Source: Candidatus Thorarchaeota archaeon (lineage in GTDB: Archaea; Asgardarchaeota; Thorarchaeia; Thorarchaeales; Thorarchaeaceae). Taken from it: a DNA stretch of 30,953 bases. The translations under genes were made by a program, and so were the position numbers. The DNA lies in contig JAEOTX010000139.1 in NCBI GenBank assembly GCA_016839605.1, positions 1 to 30,953 on the forward strand. Reading direction: 5' to 3'. The notes below the pieces were generated by a model. That model was not told the origin of the DNA, ran no database searches, and saw nothing but the letters and a program-made list of their open reading frames with translations. Positions 1,504 through 8,348 of the stretch are shown here, piece by piece; the first letter of the stretch is position 1, and each line of letters opens with the position of its first letter.

Positions 1504-2271
1504 CTATCCGAGAACGTCAGGACGGAGTTCGGCACGAGAGAATAGACTTGCGGAGCCTGATTTCTCAACCAATGTAAATGTGACATCGGTCTTGGAAAGC
1601 TCGATGAGTGTATGGACTTGGGTTGTAGCTCCACGAACGCGCCGTGAGAGCAGAGTACCCGTTGTATAGACAATCATATCATTCAAGTTCCACATCCAGG
1701 GGACATGACGATGACCACTTAGAACCAAAGAGCATTGTACACGATCCAAAAGACCTAGGACAGCACCAGAATCCTCCACAACGTTGTGTTCCCTGCCTGT
1801 GTTTGGTACAGGTATCAGATGATGATGTAGTGCGAATATACGAACTTTCTCCTTTGCCCCTCCAAGATAATCATGAATCTCATTGTACTTCACCCGACCA
1901 ACATGGCCGGCATCGTTGTCTGGCTCTGAGCTATCGGCCGCGTACAACGCAATTGATTCATCCTCATATGTTTTGAAGCGCTCTCCAAACAGCTCCTCGA
2001 AATGCGCCGCACCATAGTTACGTTCGTCATGATTTCCAGGGACCATCACTAACGGCGTTTCTATACCATTAACGACATCAGCAAATGCTTCGTATTCCTC
2101 TCTAAGACCCTCTCCTGTGAGATCCCCAGTGATGAGAATGAGAGGTGATGTCATATGCGGGGAACGCTTCTCAATCCCTTCAATTACTTCGCGGAAGTCA
2201 CCCAAAGAAACCCCAGATTCTCCAATGTGGATATCGCTCAAATGAAAAATCGTCTTGATTGTTTTTCCCAT
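1504..2271 (-). CDS. Calcineurin-like metallophosphoesterase (Icc/CpdA-like)
   Basis: All five motifs present: SDIH, TGDLT, PGNHD, LHHH, SGHRH. Its ATG overlaps the upstream TAA stop by 1 nt (TAATG), implying translational coupling. Confidence 0.9.
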   Translation of the reverse strand: MGKTIKTIFHLSDIHIGESGVSLGDFREVIEGIEKRSPHMTSPLILITGDLTGEGLREEYEAFADVVNGIETPLVMVPGNHDERNYGAAHFEELFGERFKTYEDESIALYAADSSEPDNDAGHVGRVKYNEIHDYLGGAKEKVRIFALHHHLIPVPNTGREHNVVEDSGAVLGLLDRVQCSLVLSGHRHVPWMWNLNDMIVYTTGTLLSRRVRGATTQVHTLIELSKTDVTFTLVEKSGSASLFSRAELRPDVLG

Positions 2272-4430
2272 TATCTAAAACCTCCAGAAACACATGCACT
2301 ATGGCAAGCACTGTGGCATGCACTATGACATACACAGGCACTGTGGCAAGCGCTATGACAGGCACTATGACATGCGTCGTGTGAAACGCATGCAGAGTGG
2401 CAGGCATCATGAGACACGCAACGACTGGTTTCTTCCAGAATGGGCTTCAAAGGCTCGCGGATTATATTGCCAACTCCAGAAAGGACATCTCCAATCGTAT
2501 TTGTCACGTTCGTCATAATCTGTCCGGTGGTGGAAGCCACATCTCCGACCACACGTCCAATTTCACCTATTGAATGACCAGCGGCATCTGCAATCCCCCC
2601 AAACCAATCAGGCACTTTTGGTGGGGAGATAGTCCCGCCAGGAGGCGTAAACACCCGACCGATTCTGCGGCTATGATGAGGATGCATGTAGAACCAATAC
2701 CAGGCCCAGCTATCATGATATCGTCGATTGAAGTAATAATCAACTCGACCATCAAGCGTAGGATCACTTTCTAGTTCTTCCCAAGCGCCTTCAACCATCT
2801 CCTCATGGTGTGTCTTTGTAGCGTCAAAATCGGCATCCCAAGATTTCTCTTGCACCTTCTCTGCGAGTTCTTCCAGCATGTCATCTATTTTGTCAGAATC
2901 GAGCTCATTATTGTGAATGGCGTCAACAAACATCTGCTCATAATAGGTAAGATCCTCAAATCTGAGACCGGTATCTGATAGACGCAGAGGATCTGTCGAT
3001 AGTACCCGAACCGCACCCTTCTTCACACAAGATATGAGTATCATTGACACCAGTTTCTTGCGACTTGTATTGACAAAGAAAGCACTCTCCACAGGGTCAA
3101 GATCGGCAACTGTTCCCGGAGTGCCGAAAGTTTGGATAGCTATCTCCGGACTCTCATACACTTGAGTGGTTTCATCGACCTCCCATTTCGCACCGTATCC
3201 GCCTGTGATTCGACTATAGCCATAGGACACAATGGCGATAGCTGCGATTCCAGCAAAACCCCAAATCAGAAGATTCGGGGGTATCAAAGGAGGAATGACC
3301 TCTCGCACATAGATGTTGACAGTAAACGTAACCCAATCGCTCGTGTTCAGGTCAGAAGATGAAATCTGAAAAGTAAGAGGAAGAATTTCCGGCAAATTAT
3401 CTGGCACGAAGTAGTATGTCAAGAACGAGTTTTCTCCACCATCAAGTGGACCAATATAGGTTGAAATCTGACCCGTGGTCATGGTGAGGTTATCTGGGAC
3501 CGAGAGAGTTACCGTTACATCCTCTAGTGGGGCATCTCCAATATTGAATACATTTACATCAACTGAGAATTCCGTGTTTGCATCTGCATTGATATTCTCT
3601 TGAGTGCTGTAAGCAATAGCACCGGGTTCCAGATATGGTGCATAGAAGCTCCAGTTAGTATAATGAAAGACTCGGAAGTGGTCATAGGAATCCAAATTGG
3701 AATGTGCTAGACTCACACTGAAATACCGTGGATCAGCAGATGCAGACGAGGGATACGCAAGAAGATTGTTCTCATCGAAGTCATAGAAGCTTCCAAAGTT
3801 GTCCTCTAGCCTTTGGCGAAAGTCTACAACATAGCTTGCGTAGTCTGCACCTTCGGAAGTTATCCCACTTTCTCCGGTTATCCATGAGGCCTGCATCTCT
3901 ATTGGATAGATAACTCTCACATTCTCGTAATCCATGGGTACATCCCATTGTACAGGAGCCCAGTTGAATACAGCCAAATCACCAGTGATTTCTTGACCAG
4001 ATCCCTCCAAGGTGAATGTCCCAGTTGTCTTCTCGAGAATTCGATTGGTACTGAAGTATCCAAAAACAACTGTGACGGTTTCTCCAGCTTGAGTTCGGGG
4101 AGTCCAGTCCAGTTCATATCCATTTGGGATTTGTCTGACAACCAAGCTGTAACGATTCTCATTGACCTCCGCATATGCACGGTCAGAATCATAAATGGTG
4201 GTTTCTTGAATTCCTTCTAAATTGAACCCTCCCAGCGATTCCTCTATGACTGAGATAGTTATCCAGTAGGTGACATTGATTCTACCATTTGGCAAAACTA
4301 CTACATCAACGTAGACGCTCTCAAGGTTAACGACTAGACTTTGACTAGTTGTAGCTCCTGTGACACACAAGGGGGCAACAGCTAGCAGAATGAAGCCTAT
4401 GGCAAATAAGAGAGGGAGGTCACGTTTCAA
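2271..4430 (-). CDS. Single-pass membrane protein (DUF2207-like N-domain, Ig/CARDB-like domain, TM, cytoplasmic domain) with C-terminal Cys/His repeat tail; candidate radical SAM substrate
   Basis: Signal peptide MKRDLPLLFAIGFILLAVAPLC. VDVVVLPNGRINVTYWIT resembles DUF2207 N-termini. VDVNVFNIGDAPLEDVTVTLSVP...LDGGE is Ig-like. TM is LLIWGFAGIAAIAIVSYGY. The tail is CVSHDACHSACVSHDACHSACHSACHSACVCHSACHSACHSACVSGGFR. Confidence 0.75.
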   Translation of the reverse strand: MKRDLPLLFAIGFILLAVAPLCVTGATTSQSLVVNLESVYVDVVVLPNGRINVTYWITISVIEESLGGFNLEGIQETTIYDSDRAYAEVNENRYSLVVRQIPNGYELDWTPRTQAGETVTVVFGYFSTNRILEKTTGTFTLEGSGQEITGDLAVFNWAPVQWDVPMDYENVRVIYPIEMQASWITGESGITSEGADYASYVVDFRQRLEDNFGSFYDFDENNLLAYPSSASADPRYFSVSLAHSNLDSYDHFRVFHYTNWSFYAPYLEPGAIAYSTQENINADANTEFSVDVNVFNIGDAPLEDVTVTLSVPDNLTMTTGQISTYIGPLDGGENSFLTYYFVPDNLPEILPLTFQISSSDLNTSDWVTFTVNIYVREVIPPLIPPNLLIWGFAGIAAIAIVSYGYSRITGGYGAKWEVDETTQVYESPEIAIQTFGTPGTVADLDPVESAFFVNTSRKKLVSMILISCVKKGAVRVLSTDPLRLSDTGLRFEDLTYYEQMFVDAIHNNELDSDKIDDMLEELAEKVQEKSWDADFDATKTHHEEMVEGAWEELESDPTLDGRVDYYFNRRYHDSWAWYWFYMHPHHSRRIGRVFTPPGGTISPPKVPDWFGGIADAAGHSIGEIGRVVGDVASTTGQIMTNVTNTIGDVLSGVGNIIREPLKPILEETSRCVSHDACHSACVSHDACHSACHSACHSACVCHSACHSACHSACVSGGFR
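2292..2420 (-). repeat. Coding tandem repeat: 7x CHSA plus 2x CVSHDA (43 aa, 11 Cys, 9 His)
   Basis: Read directly from the sequence. The 12-nt units are TGY CAY (AGT/AGC/TCT) GCN, and all seven CHSA units differ in codon choice. Confidence 0.95.
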
Positions 4431-4514
4431 TGAATCAGCCCCATATGCCCATCCTCAGTCCGGAATATTGTTCTAGTAGCTATATTGCTTCTAAACATCC
4501 CAACAGTTGCTCCA

Positions 4515-4907
4515 CTAATCTCCTTTCTGTGCACGCAGGACATCAGCCTGCGCTATTGTTAGATTCGACAGGTCTGCTTTTGCAGCAGCCCACTCATCAA
4601 GGTCTGGAAACTCCATAATCATGCCGCCCCAAACAAGATGATACACACGCTTGAGGATGACATCGGCGTCAGACCCTTTTCCCACATACTCGAAGAATGC
4701 CTTGACTGTGGCAGGTGACTGCTCCGTCATCTCAGCCGGAATCTCTGTTCCAAATCCTGCAAATGCAACATCAAGCTCTCGCAGGACATCCATTCTTTCT
4801 CTGATTCCAGCAGCAATAACTGGCAGGTCAATATCAAAGGCGCTGAAATGCATAATCAGCTTCTTCTTGCTAATTGTTCCATATGGCAATTTTATCTCGG
4901 AACTCAT
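4515..4907 (-). CDS. Hypothetical soluble protein (130 aa)
   Basis: ATG 4907 is preceded by an AGGAG Shine-Dalgarno-like motif. Composition is globular; no family recognised. Confidence 0.7.
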   Translation of the reverse strand: MSSEIKLPYGTISKKKLIMHFSAFDIDLPVIAAGIRERMDVLRELDVAFAGFGTEIPAEMTEQSPATVKAFFEYVGKGSDADVILKRVYHLVWGGMIMEFPDLDEWAAAKADLSNLTIAQADVLRAQKGD

Positions 4908-4916
4908 ATGACACAC

Positions 4917-5016
4917 TCCTTGATGGTGCCTTGCCTCTAGTCGGAAATGGAGGCTGATAAGCCTTTCAGGTTGTAGGCGAATCCTTAAGACACGCCCAAC
5001 AATGGCCTCATGAACG
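4917..5016. promoter_or_regulatory. Divergent promoter region between the 130-aa/Cys-tail gene run and the radical SAM gene
   Basis: About 100 nt between head-to-head genes. An AT-rich CTTAAG at 4984-4989 lies about 27 nt upstream of ATG 5017, typical archaeal TATA spacing for a leaderless mRNA. Confidence 0.4.
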
Positions 5017-6438
5017 ATGCATCAACCACAGTATGACTATAAGTTGGAGGATCTCAGCTGGATAGTCAACTTCATAGATGAAGTCAGGGACTATTTCTTT
5101 GTAAGACCACAAGATAATCTTCTGATACTGCGGCCGAACAAGGTTATGCACCTCAACGAAACAGGAACTGTAATGTTAAGAATGCTCTTAGATGGATCAA
5201 CAGCAGCAGAGGTTAGAGGCCACTTTGTAAGCAACTTCGATGCTGATGGACAGCAGGTGCTCAACGATCTGGCCGCTTTTGTTGACGATCTGAGAAGTAT
5301 GGTAATGGGAAATCAGAACATCTACTCATACAAGACAGCTAGAATTGTGCCCTTTGGAGAGGGCGACATCAAATACCCTGTATTGAGTGAAATCGCTCTT
5401 ACCTACCGTTGCAACAACAAGTGTCAATTCTGCTACGCATTCTCTCCATATAGGGAAACCAGTGAGATGACCACAGACGAGGTAAAACGGATAATTGACA
5501 TGATTACTGACGACGCCCATATACCAAGCTTATCTTTCACGGGAGGAGAGCCAACTCTGCGAGAGGACCTATTCGAGCTGATAGCATATGCTCGGGCAAA
5601 AGGACTTCGTGTCAATCTAATCACAAACGGTCGAAGATGTGCAGATCCAGAATTTGTACAACGCCTTGTCCAAGCTGATTTGAACAGCGCACAGGTGTCA
5701 ATTGAAGGCCCTGATGCCAATACTCATGACCAAATAGCAGGGGCGCCAGGCTCCTTTGAGCAAACAGTTCAGGGCATCAAGAATCTGAAGAAGACCGACA
5801 TCTATACTCATTGCAATACTACAATCTGTCGGCCCAATGTTGACAAACTTGAGGAGTTGGTTGATTTCATTGCTGATGAGCTGGAACTCAGTTACTTCAG
5901 CATGAACATGGTCATCTATACTGGCACTGCAGCAAAACTGAGGGACCAATTGCAGATCAAGTATAAAGACATTGGAGAAATTGTGAGAAGAGTGAAGAGA
6001 AGGGCAAACAAAAAGGGTGTGCAATTTGTCTGGTACGCTCCTACTCCAGTCTGCATGTTTAATCCCATTTCACTGGGCTTGGGTGCTAAGAGCTGCGCAG
6101 CATGCGACGGTCTACTATCTGTAGATGCAGAGGGTGGCCTCCTTCCATGCTCAAGCTTCAGTGAACCAGTAGGCAATATGCTGGAAGAGGGTTTTGAGAA
6201 AGTTTGGAATAGCAGAGCCTCAAGATTTTGGAGAAGCAAAGATTATGCTCCAGAGGGATGCAGGGTATGTGAACACTTTGCCTACTGCTTCGGCGCATGC
6301 CCACTATATTGGGATGTTCATGGATTTGATGAAGTTAAAGAATTTTGGCCAAAGAAAGGCCGCGTTGCATCAAAGGTCGATGAGGCAAGGCTGATTCTAA
6401 AGCGTAGGATACACGGTGACCAACATGGAATAACTTGA
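5017..6438 (+). CDS. Radical SAM/SPASM peptide-modifying-type enzyme with N-terminal PqqD/RRE domain
   Basis: CNNKCQFC is the CxxxCxxC motif, followed by FTGGEP. The N-terminal LNETGTVMLRMLLDGSTAAEVRGHFVSNFDADGQQVLNDLAAFVDDL is PqqD-like. SPASM Cys pattern: CAAC...GGLLPC...CRVCEHFAYCFGAC. Confidence 0.9.
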   Translation: MHQPQYDYKLEDLSWIVNFIDEVRDYFFVRPQDNLLILRPNKVMHLNETGTVMLRMLLDGSTAAEVRGHFVSNFDADGQQVLNDLAAFVDDLRSMVMGNQNIYSYKTARIVPFGEGDIKYPVLSEIALTYRCNNKCQFCYAFSPYRETSEMTTDEVKRIIDMITDDAHIPSLSFTGGEPTLREDLFELIAYARAKGLRVNLITNGRRCADPEFVQRLVQADLNSAQVSIEGPDANTHDQIAGAPGSFEQTVQGIKNLKKTDIYTHCNTTICRPNVDKLEELVDFIADELELSYFSMNMVIYTGTAAKLRDQLQIKYKDIGEIVRRVKRRANKKGVQFVWYAPTPVCMFNPISLGLGAKSCAACDGLLSVDAEGGLLPCSSFSEPVGNMLEEGFEKVWNSRASRFWRSKDYAPEGCRVCEHFAYCFGACPLYWDVHGFDEVKEFWPKKGRVASKVDEARLILKRRIHGDQHGIT

Positions 6439-6493
6439 GAATCCAGAGGACAGCACAATAACGGTTTTGAGGCGCCATTACTTCGATAATATT

Positions 6494-7624
6494 ATGCGTA
6501 TGGATGATGTGATAACACCAGCGACCTTGGTGGACTATGATAGGTTAGTGCAAAACGTCAAGAATATGGCAAATAAGGCCCGTGAACACCAGGTAGCACT
6601 GAGGCCACACATCAAGACGCACAAGTGTATTGAGATTGCCGAGATTCAAAGGAACTATGGAATCTCTGGCATCACGGCATCTACAATAGGTGAAGCGATG
6701 TTCTTTGCAGAGAATGGATTCGATGACATAACATTGGCTGTGCCCCTCGCACCCGACAAGATGAACGCAGTTGCCAAACTTGCCATAAAGATCAAGCTTA
6801 GGGTTATCATCGACCATCCTGCTGCACTCAAGGAATTGCGGCCGAGATTCAAGAATGCCAAGGAAGAACTTGACGTTCTTCTCAAAGTGGATTGCAACTA
6901 TCATCGAAGTGGAGTGGATCCCACTAAGAAAGGCGCGCTTTCGCTTGCAGAGAAAATTAGCAAGGCGCGTGGGCTGAACTTCGCAGGCATTCTTACTCAT
7001 GGTGGTCATTCATACTATGCCAAGTCCATTGAAGAAATTAAAGCCATAGCAGAAGAGGAGCAGAGTGTGATGCTCAAGTTTGCTAAGGACTTGAGAAAAA
7101 GGAGCAAGAAACTTGCCCCGAAGATAGTCAGCATTGGCTCCACGCCAACTTTGATGTTGACTGATTCTATTAAGAAGGGAATAACAGAGGTTCGTCCAGG
7201 TAGCTATGTCTTCTTCGACTATACACACGTGGCATTGGGTGTCTGCAAACCATACCACTGTGCATTTTCAGTTCTCTCGAGTGTCATGAGCGCGTATCCA
7301 AACAGAATCATTCTCGATGCGGGTGCTACATCACTTTCACTCGATCCCGGACCCACACACCTCTTTCCAGATTGCGGGTTTGGGAAAGTAATCTCAGACT
7401 ACCATGAGGGCGAGTTTGCACAGTACACTGACATAACAGGGCTTTCTCAAGAACATGGGAAAGTCAAGATAACTAAGGGTTCACCTCTAAAAGGCCTCGT
7501 TCCTGGAGACCGTGTTAGGATTCTGCCAAATCACTCCTGCTTAACGGCAAATCTCTCCAGTAGATTCTATGCGACCTCTGGTGATGAGATTCTAGATATC
7601 TGGGAAACCTACATGGACAGATAA
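6494..7624 (+). CDS. PLP-dependent fold-type III enzyme, D-threonine aldolase / D-serine dehydratase (DSD1) family
   Basis: TPATLVD, RPHIKTHK (PLP Lys), SIGSTPT, EVRPGSYVF, LSQEHG and PNHSCLT (metal His/Cys). Start could be 6467, 6494 or 6500. Confidence 0.85.
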   Translation: MRMDDVITPATLVDYDRLVQNVKNMANKAREHQVALRPHIKTHKCIEIAEIQRNYGISGITASTIGEAMFFAENGFDDITLAVPLAPDKMNAVAKLAIKIKLRVIIDHPAALKELRPRFKNAKEELDVLLKVDCNYHRSGVDPTKKGALSLAEKISKARGLNFAGILTHGGHSYYAKSIEEIKAIAEEEQSVMLKFAKDLRKRSKKLAPKIVSIGSTPTLMLTDSIKKGITEVRPGSYVFFDYTHVALGVCKPYHCAFSVLSSVMSAYPNRIILDAGATSLSLDPGPTHLFPDCGFGKVISDYHEGEFAQYTDITGLSQEHGKVKITKGSPLKGLVPGDRVRILPNHSCLTANLSSRFYATSGDEILDIWETYMDR

Positions 7625-7634
7625 TGGTCTACGT

Positions 7635-8348
7635 TTATCTCTCCAAGCGGTTTACAATGAAATGTCCACAGTATGGGCAGTTCTCTTCTTCTCCAGGGAG
7701 TATTGGATTAGGAAGCTTCCCTCCGCAATTTGGGCAAGTTGTCACAGCCTTTGGAAGTTGCTCAACAGCTTCTGAGGTGTAAACGACGCGGGAGTTCTTG
7801 TCGATAGTGCCTCTGAATTTACCCTTACTTGATAGGTTTTCAAGGGCTTCCACAATCTGATTATCAGTCGCATTTGCTACGTTCGATATCTGGTCAAATG
7901 TCATTCTACGTTGAGCATGCAATAGATGCAAAAGACTCTCTTCAAGGGACACCGCCGATGGGCTGACTATCTCATTCTTCCCTCTGTCAAGATACACAAG
8001 TGGAAGACGTCTGCGTGCTAGCTTCTCTGCAGCATCTGCAACGTCACTGGAGCCTACGTCAAGCGCTTTGGCAGCTTCAGCGACACCAATTCGACCTTCC
8101 TTCTGGACAAGCGGAATGAGCCTTCCAGAAATGTCACCTACACGAGCATCACGAGTGCCCTTCACTATGAGCCATAATCCAATTGCCAGCTCAGGCAGAC
8201 CAAGTATCCCCCACGCGATGATGCCTGAAGTGATAAGAGTCCCAATATCTCCACCCACCTGAATCGTTGCCTGATAGACAATATATGACATGGCAACGCA
8301 GATGATGAGTAGAATGAAACCTATAAGCTGAGATAGACGTGGATTCAT
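7635..8348 (-). CDS. Membrane protein: 2 TM, tandem winged-helix (PCI-like) domains, C-terminal Zn ribbon
   Basis: Two N-terminal hydrophobic helices. GRIGVAEAAKALDV and RRMTFDQISNV...GKFRGTIDKNSRVV are wHTH-like. C-terminal CPNCGG...CPYCG. Confidence 0.65.
   Translation of the reverse strand: MNPRLSQLIGFILLIICVAMSYIVYQATIQVGGDIGTLITSGIIAWGILGLPELAIGLWLIVKGTRDARVGDISGRLIPLVQKEGRIGVAEAAKALDVGSSDVADAAEKLARRRLPLVYLDRGKNEIVSPSAVSLEESLLHLLHAQRRMTFDQISNVANATDNQIVEALENLSSKGKFRGTIDKNSRVVYTSEAVEQLPKAVTTCPNCGGKLPNPILPGEEENCPYCGHFIVNRLER

Follow-up and report, generated by a model that had tools for sequence, protein, structure and literature searches.

We found in a Thorarchaeota genome a candidate protein-modification module, in which a radical SAM enzyme would dock through its RRE domain on a large membrane protein and then covalently change, in place, the cysteines of the protein's C-terminal tail. 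We give this reading a probability of about 65%. The enzyme very probably acts on the tail, since it is encoded together with this near-unchangeable-tail protein in Asgard archaea and in many bacterial phyla. The window, meaning the whole stretch of DNA analyzed, comprises 30,953 nucleotides, and these are its relevant features:

1504..2271, minus strand: metallophosphoesterase (Pfam Metallophos, 58.8 bits)
2271..4430, minus strand: 719-aa bitopic membrane protein, remotely DUF2207/TIGR04222-like (translation, weak Pfam matches, hydropathy, AF2 model)
2274..2423, minus strand: C-terminal (CHSA)n tail of the membrane protein, aa 670-719, presumed substrate (11 Cys and 9 His; codon conservation)
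3126..3167, minus strand: predicted docking site of the RRE, a juxtamembrane motif at aa 422-435 with the core YESPEIAIQTF (conservation and complex model)
3216..3287, minus strand: transmembrane helix, aa 382-405 (Kyte-Doolittle segment; helix in the AF2 model)
4518..4907, minus strand: 130-aa conserved protein, directly upstream of the tail-protein gene (ORF 4515-4916, conserved from the ATG at 4907)
5017..6438, plus strand: RRE-radical SAM-SPASM enzyme, 473 aa (Pfam domains above cut-offs)
about 5125-5298, plus strand: RRE/PqqD domain of the enzyme (PqqD match at aa 37-94)
5410-5433, plus strand: CxxxCxxC motif of the enzyme (C132/C136/C139)
within 6052-6300, plus strand: SPASM cysteines of the enzyme (cysteine conservation in 47 homologues)
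7635..8348, minus strand: 237-aa protein, its gene convergent to that of the enzyme, containing two TM helices, a Zn ribbon, and winged-helix-like segments

At the level of the enzyme, a PqqD/RRE-like N-domain, a CxxxCxxC motif, and a SPASM domain had been read from the sequence, and all three Pfam domains scored above their cut-offs. They were PF05402 for the RRE/PqqD type (37.2 vs. 23.4 bits, aa 37-94), PF04055 for the radical SAM superfamily (97.8 vs. 29.5 bits), and PF13186 for SPASM (29.4 vs. 21.5 bits), which includes the CxxCx5Cx3C pattern. Among the 47 homologues, the CxxxCxxC cysteines do not vary, nor do six of the seven conserved SPASM cysteines (C360, C378, C415, C418, C424, and C428); the seventh, C346, is nearly invariant. 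RRE domains are devices for recognizing peptides. The enzyme gene lies head-to-head with the minus-strand genes of the 130-aa protein, the 719-aa protein, and the metallophosphoesterase, as first described.

In the NCBIfam scan, the enzyme stayed under the cut-off of all curated families and missed the curated thioether-synthase families by far. The CteB-type assignment that had been proposed is not supported, with 48.5 bits against a TIGR03974 cut-off of 425. The enzyme was also below the cut-offs of TIGR04463, the CrpC family or rSAM_vs_C_rich (65.2 bits at 5392-6306 vs. 525), of NF047865, the PapB ranthipeptide maturase (91.6 vs. 340 bits), and of TIGR04340, the radical SAM enzyme of the ACGX system (95.6 vs. 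400 bits). The radical SAM core also resembles those of two non-peptide SPASM enzymes, AhbD (155.7 bits) and the tetraether lipid synthase Tes (82.7 bits), both below cut-offs.

The extracellular N-domain of the membrane protein is followed by a single TM helix, then by a winged-helix and helical domain in the cytoplasm, and finally by the Cys tail. Hydropathy detects no hydrophobic segments other than aa 3-29 and aa 382-405, which predicts a cytoplasmic location for the C-terminal 314 residues. The original prediction had placed the tail in the cytoplasm with the enzyme, and hydropathy and the AF2 model bear this topology out. The C-terminus is also as it was quoted there, with the 11 Cys and 9 His falling in the last 50 residues.

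Membrane protein and tail matched nothing above cut-off in NCBIfam or Pfam, even at an E-value of 10, and the only weak Pfam matches were the DUF2207 N-terminal domain (E 0.011) and CARDB (E 5e-4). For DUF2207 (PF09972/PF20990), the N-domain reached 16.4 bits vs. 24.4 and the C-domain gave no match; a remote kinship is plausible because the architecture looks similar. For TIGR04222 (cut-off 43 bits), the window's own protein gave no match, and 3 of 17 members of the tail-protein family did, with a best E-value of 3.9e-7 and 22.5 bits for the Chloroflexota member. Foldseek against the PDB retrieved nothing at E ≤ 0.001 for the cytoplasmic region. The part of the protein outside the tail is also conserved across domains of life.

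The tail is strongly constrained at the codon level. Across 29 orthologues (61-90% identical overall), 46 of its 50 codon columns are fixed in amino acid with synonymous variation present, and third-position identity is 45%; just before the tail, 34 of 50 codon columns vary in amino acid. By these codon comparisons, the tail is under extreme purifying selection, with synonymous sites close to saturated, and the repeat is among the most strongly conserved to be found. A chance or slippage product is ruled out by the fixed residues with several codons per column. The Thorarchaeota tail contains two C-x3-D-type units. In public protein predictions of the orthologues, seven of seven matches stop before the tail, at least some of them being partial or cut at contig ends.

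The original prediction took the tail of the large membrane protein as the substrate, and both computable findings named against it, enzyme orthologues usually lacking a Cys-tail protein and a separate small precursor, failed to appear; the interpretation is supported. In the window's own family, 54 of 76 genomes –related, and thus non-independent samples– carry both genes, 15 carry neither (a shared absence that is weak evidence, because adjacent genes can go in a single deletion), and seven are discordant, mostly as contig-end fragments and once through an assembly gap. As for a precursor, the intergenic regions contained no Cys-rich ORF of at least 20 aa, in line with the first reading. The 130-aa neighbor was rejected as a separate Cys precursor, having no Cys-rich region or repeat in its sequence.

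Outside Thorarchaeota, the enzyme gene is the next one downstream, on the same strand, in 55 of 62 CHSA-tail loci (bacterial and other), in most cases -30 to +100 nt away. Five apparent non-adjacent exceptions have one enzyme orthologue each elsewhere in the genome. The DNA-pattern scan, by which the bacterial loci were gathered, located the pairing in about 15 bacterial phyla; it is present on Chloroflexota-type contigs and on one Helarchaeota contig. In the Asgard family f12, the enzyme homologue does not adjoin the tail gene, and members are at contig ends in 3 of 5 genomes. A profile search sized the family at 689 sequence clusters at 50% identity, and at least one carrier is cultured, Desulfobulbus alkaliphilus DSM 24258. 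The suspicion that the family extends beyond this archaeon was well founded, with Asgard archaea and those bacterial phyla now included.

Bacterial proteins with Cys-Ala repeats plus GGGR, mentioned in the original prediction, do exist and are paired with an RRE-type radical SAM enzyme. These (CA)n-GGGR tail proteins are a larger sister branch of the same family, with their own enzyme clade and a methyltransferase. In the unrooted enzyme tree, the enzymes adjoining CA-type tails formed one clade (SH-aLRT 100), and the Thorarchaeota enzymes grouped next to a sister set from Chloroflexota, Myxococcota, and Sumerlaeota, in which most tails share Val-His-Asp-type units. From the tree, enzyme clades follow tail types. 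We claim neither a root nor a direction of transfer, because the outgroup joins on a very long branch inside the tree. Both tail types have one unit in common, a small residue followed by Cys: Ala-Cys in CHSA tails, Ala-Cys and Gly-Cys in CA tails.

For an unbiased model of the complex, we used the full enzyme, tail-protein residues 412-719, SAM, and three 4Fe-4S clusters. The model scored 0.83 (0.84, 0.83, and 0.83 in three runs) vs. 0.00 for the best of three controls. In a benchmark that is rough here (own alignments, ligands included), 58 of 80 solved complexes attained this mark, as did 2 of 110 mismatched pairs; the pass may mirror likeness rather than specific binding, because related RRE-leader complexes have been solved. 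The runs had at least 32% of contacts in common, with a partner pLDDT of at least 64. The confident interface joins partner residues 11-24 (aa 422-435) to enzyme residues 36-116, the RRE. Confident placement was limited to this docking motif and a single helix of the cytoplasmic domain; the tail was not confidently placed in or near the active site.

Within the docking motif, P428 never varies in either alignment, and Y425 hardly varies in the one of 17 sequences; the motif is disordered in the AF2 monomer model. Recognition had been expected within the last ~100 residues of the membrane protein. Instead, in the model the docking site is separated from the tail by ~235 residues and a folded domain, an arrangement that differs from that of ordinary RiPP leaders. 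The motif falls in a region weakly common to TIGR04222 proteins and may be conserved for reasons other than docking, because those proteins pair with MNIO enzymes.

We propose that the N-domain of the membrane protein would face the cell exterior and the last 314 residues the cytoplasm, where the N-terminal RRE of the enzyme is predicted to dock on the linear motif 17-30 residues past the membrane helix. The docked enzyme would then covalently modify the cysteines of the far C-terminal repeat, and the modified tail would remain attached to the membrane protein. The finished Cys/His-rich tail would probably give a DUF2207-like membrane protein a rigid element for metal binding or redox function. 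By analogy with CrpC, QhpD, CteB, and PapB, the leading candidate for the chemistry is the formation of Cys-derived thioether crosslinks (ranthionine or sactionine), a tentative choice that we rate at somewhat under even odds.

SCIFF peptides contain CQSAC-like units. SCIFF/CteB and PapB are, like the present enzyme, RRE-radical SAM-SPASM systems, and they work on Cys-rich cores, to which the two C-x3-D-type units of the Thorarchaeota tail are a further likeness, but their substrates are peptides of ~45 aa with an N-terminal leader rather than a large membrane protein. CrpC of Methanococcus voltae (TIGR04463) makes ranthionine crosslinks on the 28.8-kDa Cys-rich CrpA (Dieter et al. 2026, PMC13692751). 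Its SPASM domain has seven Cys, which the authors read as leaving one auxiliary-cluster iron free for a substrate Cys (PMC13692751). CrpC/CrpA agrees with our system in the RRE-radical SAM-SPASM architecture, the seven-Cys SPASM, Cys motifs repeated toward the C-terminus of a full protein rather than a short peptide, a small co-encoded protein that may help, and a suspected metal-related role. However, CrpA is soluble, with a 17-residue repeat and an N-terminal leader, whereas here a 719-aa membrane protein carries a 4-residue repeat and a predicted internal docking motif, and the present module, unlike CrpC/CrpA, spans many bacterial phyla and Asgard archaea.

QhpD and its substrate QhpC belong to the system of quinohemoprotein amine dehydrogenase. 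QhpD, a radical SAM/SPASM enzyme modifying Cys in this protein subunit, has been cited as a precedent (PMC13692751). SbtM is a radical SAM enzyme with probable SPASM-type auxiliary clusters that converts a conserved Gly-Cys unit to a thio(seleno)oxazole, the carbonyl carbon of the preceding residue entering the ring (PMC9204691). Both act on Cys, as we propose here, but are paired with neither a membrane protein nor a tandem repeat. The ACGX system has a 4-residue Ala-Cys-containing tandem repeat beside a radical SAM/SPASM enzyme; its TIGR04340 family matches our enzyme weakly, and its substrates are short peptides.

SbtM also suggests a different product from the same module and docking: the enzyme would oxidize the Ala-Cys/Gly-Cys units to thiooxazoles or related oxidized Cys products, giving a membrane-tethered cytoplasmic metal chelator that acts together with the histidines. 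The small residue-Cys unit of both tail types fits this chemistry, and a role in metal handling would suit the nine tail His and the VIT1-type metal transporter gene found at one CA-type locus. Bufferin thiooxazoles, which are MNIO-made, chelate copper, and TIGR04222 membrane proteins with Cys-rich C-tails, the remote relatives matched by 3 of 17 members, are putative MNIO (DUF692) substrates (PMC12452194). However, the listed top 25 families include SbtM's TIGR04082 for the CA-type enzyme alone, at 75 bits vs. 350, and the window's enzyme is under the cut-off of every curated family, as is the TIGR04222 link under that of its model. We consider this outcome unlikely, though worth keeping in mind.

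The comparison with TIGR04222 goes beyond the product. Those proteins also have a low-complexity, Cys-bearing C-terminus on a membrane protein, a presumed in-place target of a RiPP-type enzyme, and they show weak sequence likeness to the post-TM region of the present family. Their partner is an MNIO rather than a radical SAM enzyme, their tails are Ser/Gly-rich, variable, and predicted to be periplasmic, in contrast to the cytoplasmic tail here –a further point against thiooxazoles–, and their association is looser, a third of the genomes with the protein having no MNIO. As a speculation that we would not expect to hold in full, DUF2207/TIGR04222-like membrane proteins might form a cross-domain class of 'protein-borne RiPP cores', whose Cys-rich ends dedicated enzymes, radical SAM/SPASM here and MNIO in Actinomycetota, would make into cofactor-like arrays, built into the protein, for metal binding or redox function. 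In that case, thiooxazole-type chemistry would have arisen twice, and Chloroflexota-like bacteria and Thorarchaeota would have exchanged the module.

It is improbable that the tail is an unmodified metallothionein-like or Fe-S-binding element and that the enzyme docks for another reason, such as being recruited to the membrane for some other substrate or drawing electrons or metal from the tail. C-x-C and C-x3-C repeats accompanied by His commonly act as metal ligands, and the likeness of the radical SAM core to AhbD and Tes would agree with a non-peptide substrate. However, the RRE is a peptide-recognition domain, enzyme clades follow tail type, the tail and enzyme genes share an operon across about 15 phyla, and the fixed Ser and Ala positions are hard to account for by metal binding alone.

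A RiPP in the strict sense has its modified core freed from the leader by proteolysis. That the modified tail is cut off and released as a small product, the membrane protein being only a giant leader, is very improbable: a TldD/PmbA pair and a JAB peptidase are neighbors of one variant locus, but no protease or exporter is a conserved neighbor in Thorarchaeota or at the 62 loci outside them (bacterial and other), the tail is cytoplasmic, and conservation between domains of life extends to the remainder of the protein.

In-place modification of the tail remains our preferred reading, and we came across no paper or curated family that describes the system of enzyme and Cys-tail membrane protein. 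The literature searched contained no paper with [9 protein letters not shown]-type or CACACAGGGR-type strings, and that on DUF2207 gives no mechanism. To our knowledge, proven RiPP-type modification of whole proteins concerns very few cases: QhpC, methyl-coenzyme M reductase, and, since 2026, CrpA. If our reading is true, a large family would be added, with an integral membrane protein as substrate and a predicted internal recognition motif. The module is a defined, readily testable putative enzyme-substrate pair, which could show what the enigmatic DUF2207-like membrane proteins do and may show how metal-binding or redox structures arise at the inner face of the membrane.

Among the neighboring genes, the metallophosphoesterase is a lineage-specific neighbor outside the module core. 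Its ATG overlaps the TAA stop of the tail gene (TAATG). Only about every second Thorarchaeota locus has it as a neighbor, and no bacterial locus does; beyond the window's family, it stands beside two Thor-type archaeal copies only.

The 130-aa protein, with a mean column identity of 82% in 14 Thorarchaeota, was found in 28 of 29 other loci, the exception (L005) being without upstream flank. Homologues with 37-40% identity occupy the same position in three bacterial loci (L077, L110, and L114). It belongs to no Pfam or NCBIfam family, and Foldseek against the PDB gave nothing at E ≤ 0.001. A wide structural comparison peaked at Z 7.9, a generic alpha/beta sandwich within background, and was set aside as a fold identity. 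From its conservation and position, this protein is an accessory component in a subset of these modules.

The 237-aa protein is a probable accessory component, judging from gene content and sequence likeness. Most Thorarchaeota genera show synteny between its gene and the enzyme gene, and it is missing from 13 of 14 genomes without the module; G128 and G299 retain it, unlinked. It is also weakly similar (E 1e-5) to a TM and Zn-ribbon accessory protein of Chloroflexota modules.

We consider that the region encodes a conserved cross-domain module in which, as sequence comparison and modelling suggest, an RRE-bearing radical SAM/SPASM enzyme most likely modifies in place the Cys tail of an entire membrane protein. 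This agrees with the main inference of the original prediction –that the tail of the large membrane protein is the substrate– which the comparative and modelling evidence supports. Its gene layout was also confirmed: the enzyme, three divergent minus-strand genes, and the Cys-repeat end of the 719-aa protein. The genes concerned are:

1504-2271, minus strand: metallophosphoesterase, divergent from the enzyme gene; its ATG overlaps the stop of the preceding gene
2271-4430, minus strand: tail protein of 719 aa, divergent from the enzyme gene
4515-4916, minus strand: small gene, conserved from the ATG at 4907 (130 aa), divergent from the enzyme gene
5017-6438, plus strand: RRE-radical SAM-SPASM enzyme of 473 aa, with three domains
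6467-7624, plus strand: Ala_racemase_N plus D-Ser-dehydratase-type gene, between the enzyme and TM/Zn-ribbon genes in this genus
7635-8348, minus strand: 237-aa protein with two TM helices, winged-helix-like segments and a Zn ribbon

Three domains were recognized in the enzyme: PqqD/RRE at aa 37-94 (37.2 bits), radical SAM with CxxxCxxC at C132/C136/C139 (97.8 bits), and SPASM (29.4 bits). Three radical-SAM and seven SPASM cysteines are kept in the alignment of 47 homologues. It scored below the cut-offs of the CrpC family (65 vs. 525 bits) and the CteB family (48.5 vs. 425 bits) and falls outside the PapB and ACGX families; among solved structures, SkfB (75 bits) and PqqE (65 bits) come closest to it by sequence. 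The same genome holds another radical-SAM/SPASM gene (G000:C244:1609-2649), which reached 154.6 bits against the SCIFF-maturase model, under its cut-off, and for which one search reported an in-frame TGA.

The tail protein presented only two hydrophobic segments (aa 3-29 and 382-405) and sub-threshold matches to DUF2207 and CARDB. Its last 50 residues contain 11 Cys and 9 His in a Cys-His-Ser-Ala (CHSA) repeat. No separate precursor had been seen at first reading, and indeed the intergenic DNA contained no short Cys-rich ORF. The source names of homologues assign the window to Thorarchaeota. Searching 301 genomes of the phylum, we found orthologues of the tail protein in 58 of the 76 genomes of its own family. 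In 29 of them the tail is nearly invariant, with an overall identity of just 61-90%. Across these orthologues, 46 of the 50 tail codon columns had a fixed amino acid but several codons, Ser positions switched between AGY and TCN codons, and third-position identity was 45%; in the 50 preceding codons, 34 columns varied in amino acid. Fixed amino acids despite varying codons indicate that the tail peptide itself is very strongly constrained, including its Ser and Ala positions.

Several family members depart from this form or are incompletely represented. In one orthologue (L029, G218:C156), an in-frame TAG lies shortly upstream of the tail and the frame runs on through a normal tail; the NCBI-annotated protein of 636 aa ends at this TAG, for which candidate explanations are sequencing error, a pseudogene and read-through. 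All seven public predictions of the membrane protein (P0006-P0012) stop short of the tail; four are annotated as partial, and one ends in a string resembling translated adapter sequence. In Asgard family f12, contig ends interrupt the gene (G067:C13, G043:C32, G096:C21). Assemblies apparently break at the repeat, leaving the tail under-represented in protein databases. In proteins P0231 and P0242 the repeat is internal and followed by an extra domain of ~90 aa; thus, it need not be the C-terminus. Some CHSA-type members (locus L035, G004:C6; proteins P0138 and P0222) exceed 900 aa; their cytoplasmic domain contains an additional zinc-ribbon-like insert rich in Cys, and they end in GGWG; at L035 the enzyme gene lies upstream, not downstream, of the tail gene.

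Enzyme and tail protein occur together. The order enzyme, divergent 130-aa gene, membrane protein was kept in 28 of 29 other loci from 11 genera of the family, the exception (L005) being without upstream flank; the phosphoesterase came next in only about half. Within the family, 54 genomes carried both genes, 15 neither and seven were discordant. Where inspected, discordance came down to a contig-end break or an assembly gap; most of the remaining cases were partial matches at contig ends.

Enzyme homologues also occur in bacteria at ~50% identity. On two Chloroflexota-type contigs, the enzyme gene is directly preceded by a gene for a tail-protein homologue of 577-613 aa that ends in the same kind of repeat, and a Helarchaeota contig holds a shorter version. 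Scanning one genome per species, the DNA pattern encoding CHSACHSAC was found at at least 80 loci, and 65 of 80 were real tail genes among the matches listed. Hosts include Chloroflexota, Spirochaetota, Planctomycetota, Myxococcota, Acidobacteriota, Bacillota, Pseudomonadota, Gemmatimonadota and Omnitrophota, among others; one carrier, Desulfobulbus alkaliphilus DSM 24258, is cultured. Outside Thorarchaeota, the enzyme gene was immediately downstream on the same strand in 55 of 62 loci among the matches listed, mostly -30 to +100 nt from the tail stop. For the five loci with enough flank and no adjacent enzyme gene, each genome has one orthologue elsewhere (41-51% identity). All these pairings are to be read knowing that one deletion removes adjacent genes together and that related genomes are non-independent samples.

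At the structural level, AlphaFold2 predicted a folded winged-helix plus helical domain at about aa 440-570 of the cytoplasmic region, separated from the TM helix by a low-confidence stretch (aa 412-437); the linker and tail beyond the domain were again low-confidence. The 412-437 stretch holds a strand-like motif in which P428 never varies in either alignment and Y425 is nearly invariant in the alignment of 17 sequences. We co-folded the complete enzyme and aa 412-719 of the tail protein, adding SAM and three 4Fe-4S clusters and leaving any segment free to dock. The complex scored 0.83 (three runs: 0.84, 0.83 and 0.83) and the best of three controls 0.00; 58 of 80 solved complexes attain this mark, as against 2 of 110 mismatched pairs, counts that are only rough here since our own alignments and ligands were used. 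At least 32% of contacts were common to the runs, with partner pLDDT of at least 64. The confident interface is predicted between membrane-protein aa 422-435 and enzyme residues 36-116: P428 would contact residues 46-50, 84 and 88, and I430 to Q433 would pair with residues 45-47 and 107-111. The model did not position the tail. RREs usually bind a leader strand in this manner, and RRE-leader complexes have been solved for related enzymes; thus, the score shows likeness to those complexes rather than binding by this enzyme and tail protein.

The closest precedent for the pair is CrpC/CrpA. CrpC, an RRE-rSAM-SPASM enzyme with a seven-Cys SPASM domain, forms ranthionine crosslinks on the 28.8-kDa Cys-rich CrpA (PMC13692751); our enzyme shares this build and SPASM type but lies outside the CrpC family. 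Thiooxazole formation instead of thioether crosslinks remains a serious alternative, because a small residue followed by Cys is the only unit shared by the CHSA tails and the CA tails of a sister system, and the radical-SAM enzyme SbtM, with probable SPASM-type auxiliary clusters, converts a Gly-Cys unit into a thio(seleno)oxazole (PMC9204691). Three of 17 tail-protein family members weakly matched TIGR04222 (best E 3.9e-7), which comprises membrane proteins with Cys-containing low-complexity C-termini, proposed as MNIO substrates; MNIO thiooxazole products chelate copper in bufferins (PMC12452194).

That sister system bears out the original prediction's mention of proteins ending in Cys-Ala repeats plus GGGR. 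Other Asgard families encode 510-640-aa homologues of the tail protein whose ends consist of a Gly run, then (CA)n repeats, then GGGR; each is followed by a radical-SAM enzyme 30-36% identical to ours and, in most loci, by a class I methyltransferase. In family f9, a gene for a small TM plus Zn-ribbon protein precedes the tail gene. A profile of the cytoplasmic region retrieved 689 clusters at 50% identity from 1.84 billion proteins, and among the best 147, tails were CA-type in 135 and CHSA-type in seven. A metagenomic CA-type locus had identical gene order. In a quick, unrooted maximum-likelihood tree, enzymes beside CA tails formed one clade (SH-aLRT 100), and Thorarchaeota enzymes grouped as sisters (support 87) of the enzymes from Chloroflexota, Myxococcota and Sumerlaeota, Val-His-Asp-type units being common to most of the tails concerned. 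Thus, enzyme clades follow tail types.

The CA-type locus L188 (JGI 3300056883) carries, near the tail gene, a second radical-SAM gene without SPASM and methyltransferase, HD-domain and VIT1-type metal transporter genes. A third tail variant (L190, P0159, P0180, P0184 and others) has CVSCAC-type units and an SGGAG end. Its sole locus examined, L190 (JGI 3300022552), adjoins a TldD/PmbA pair together with a JAB peptidase, on a short contig with no visible enzyme gene.

Regarding candidate accessory components, the 130-aa protein showed 82% mean column identity and a predicted generic alpha/beta sandwich fold, and in three bacterial loci a homologue (37-40% identity) occupies the position immediately before the tail gene. 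Most Thorarchaeota genera have the 237-aa gene convergent with the enzyme gene, and in several the two are directly adjacent; the 237-aa gene is missing from 13 of 14 module-less genomes and kept but unlinked in two genomes of one genus. Its product weakly resembles (E 1e-5) a TM plus Zn-ribbon protein of 165 aa found with the modules of Chloroflexota, Myxococcota and Sumerlaeota, where a coiled-coil protein of 390 aa occurs as well. The phosphoesterase and the D-Ser-dehydratase-like gene are lineage-specific neighbours, and the latter looks inserted into the module, because the enzyme and TM/Zn-ribbon genes are directly adjacent in those several other genera.
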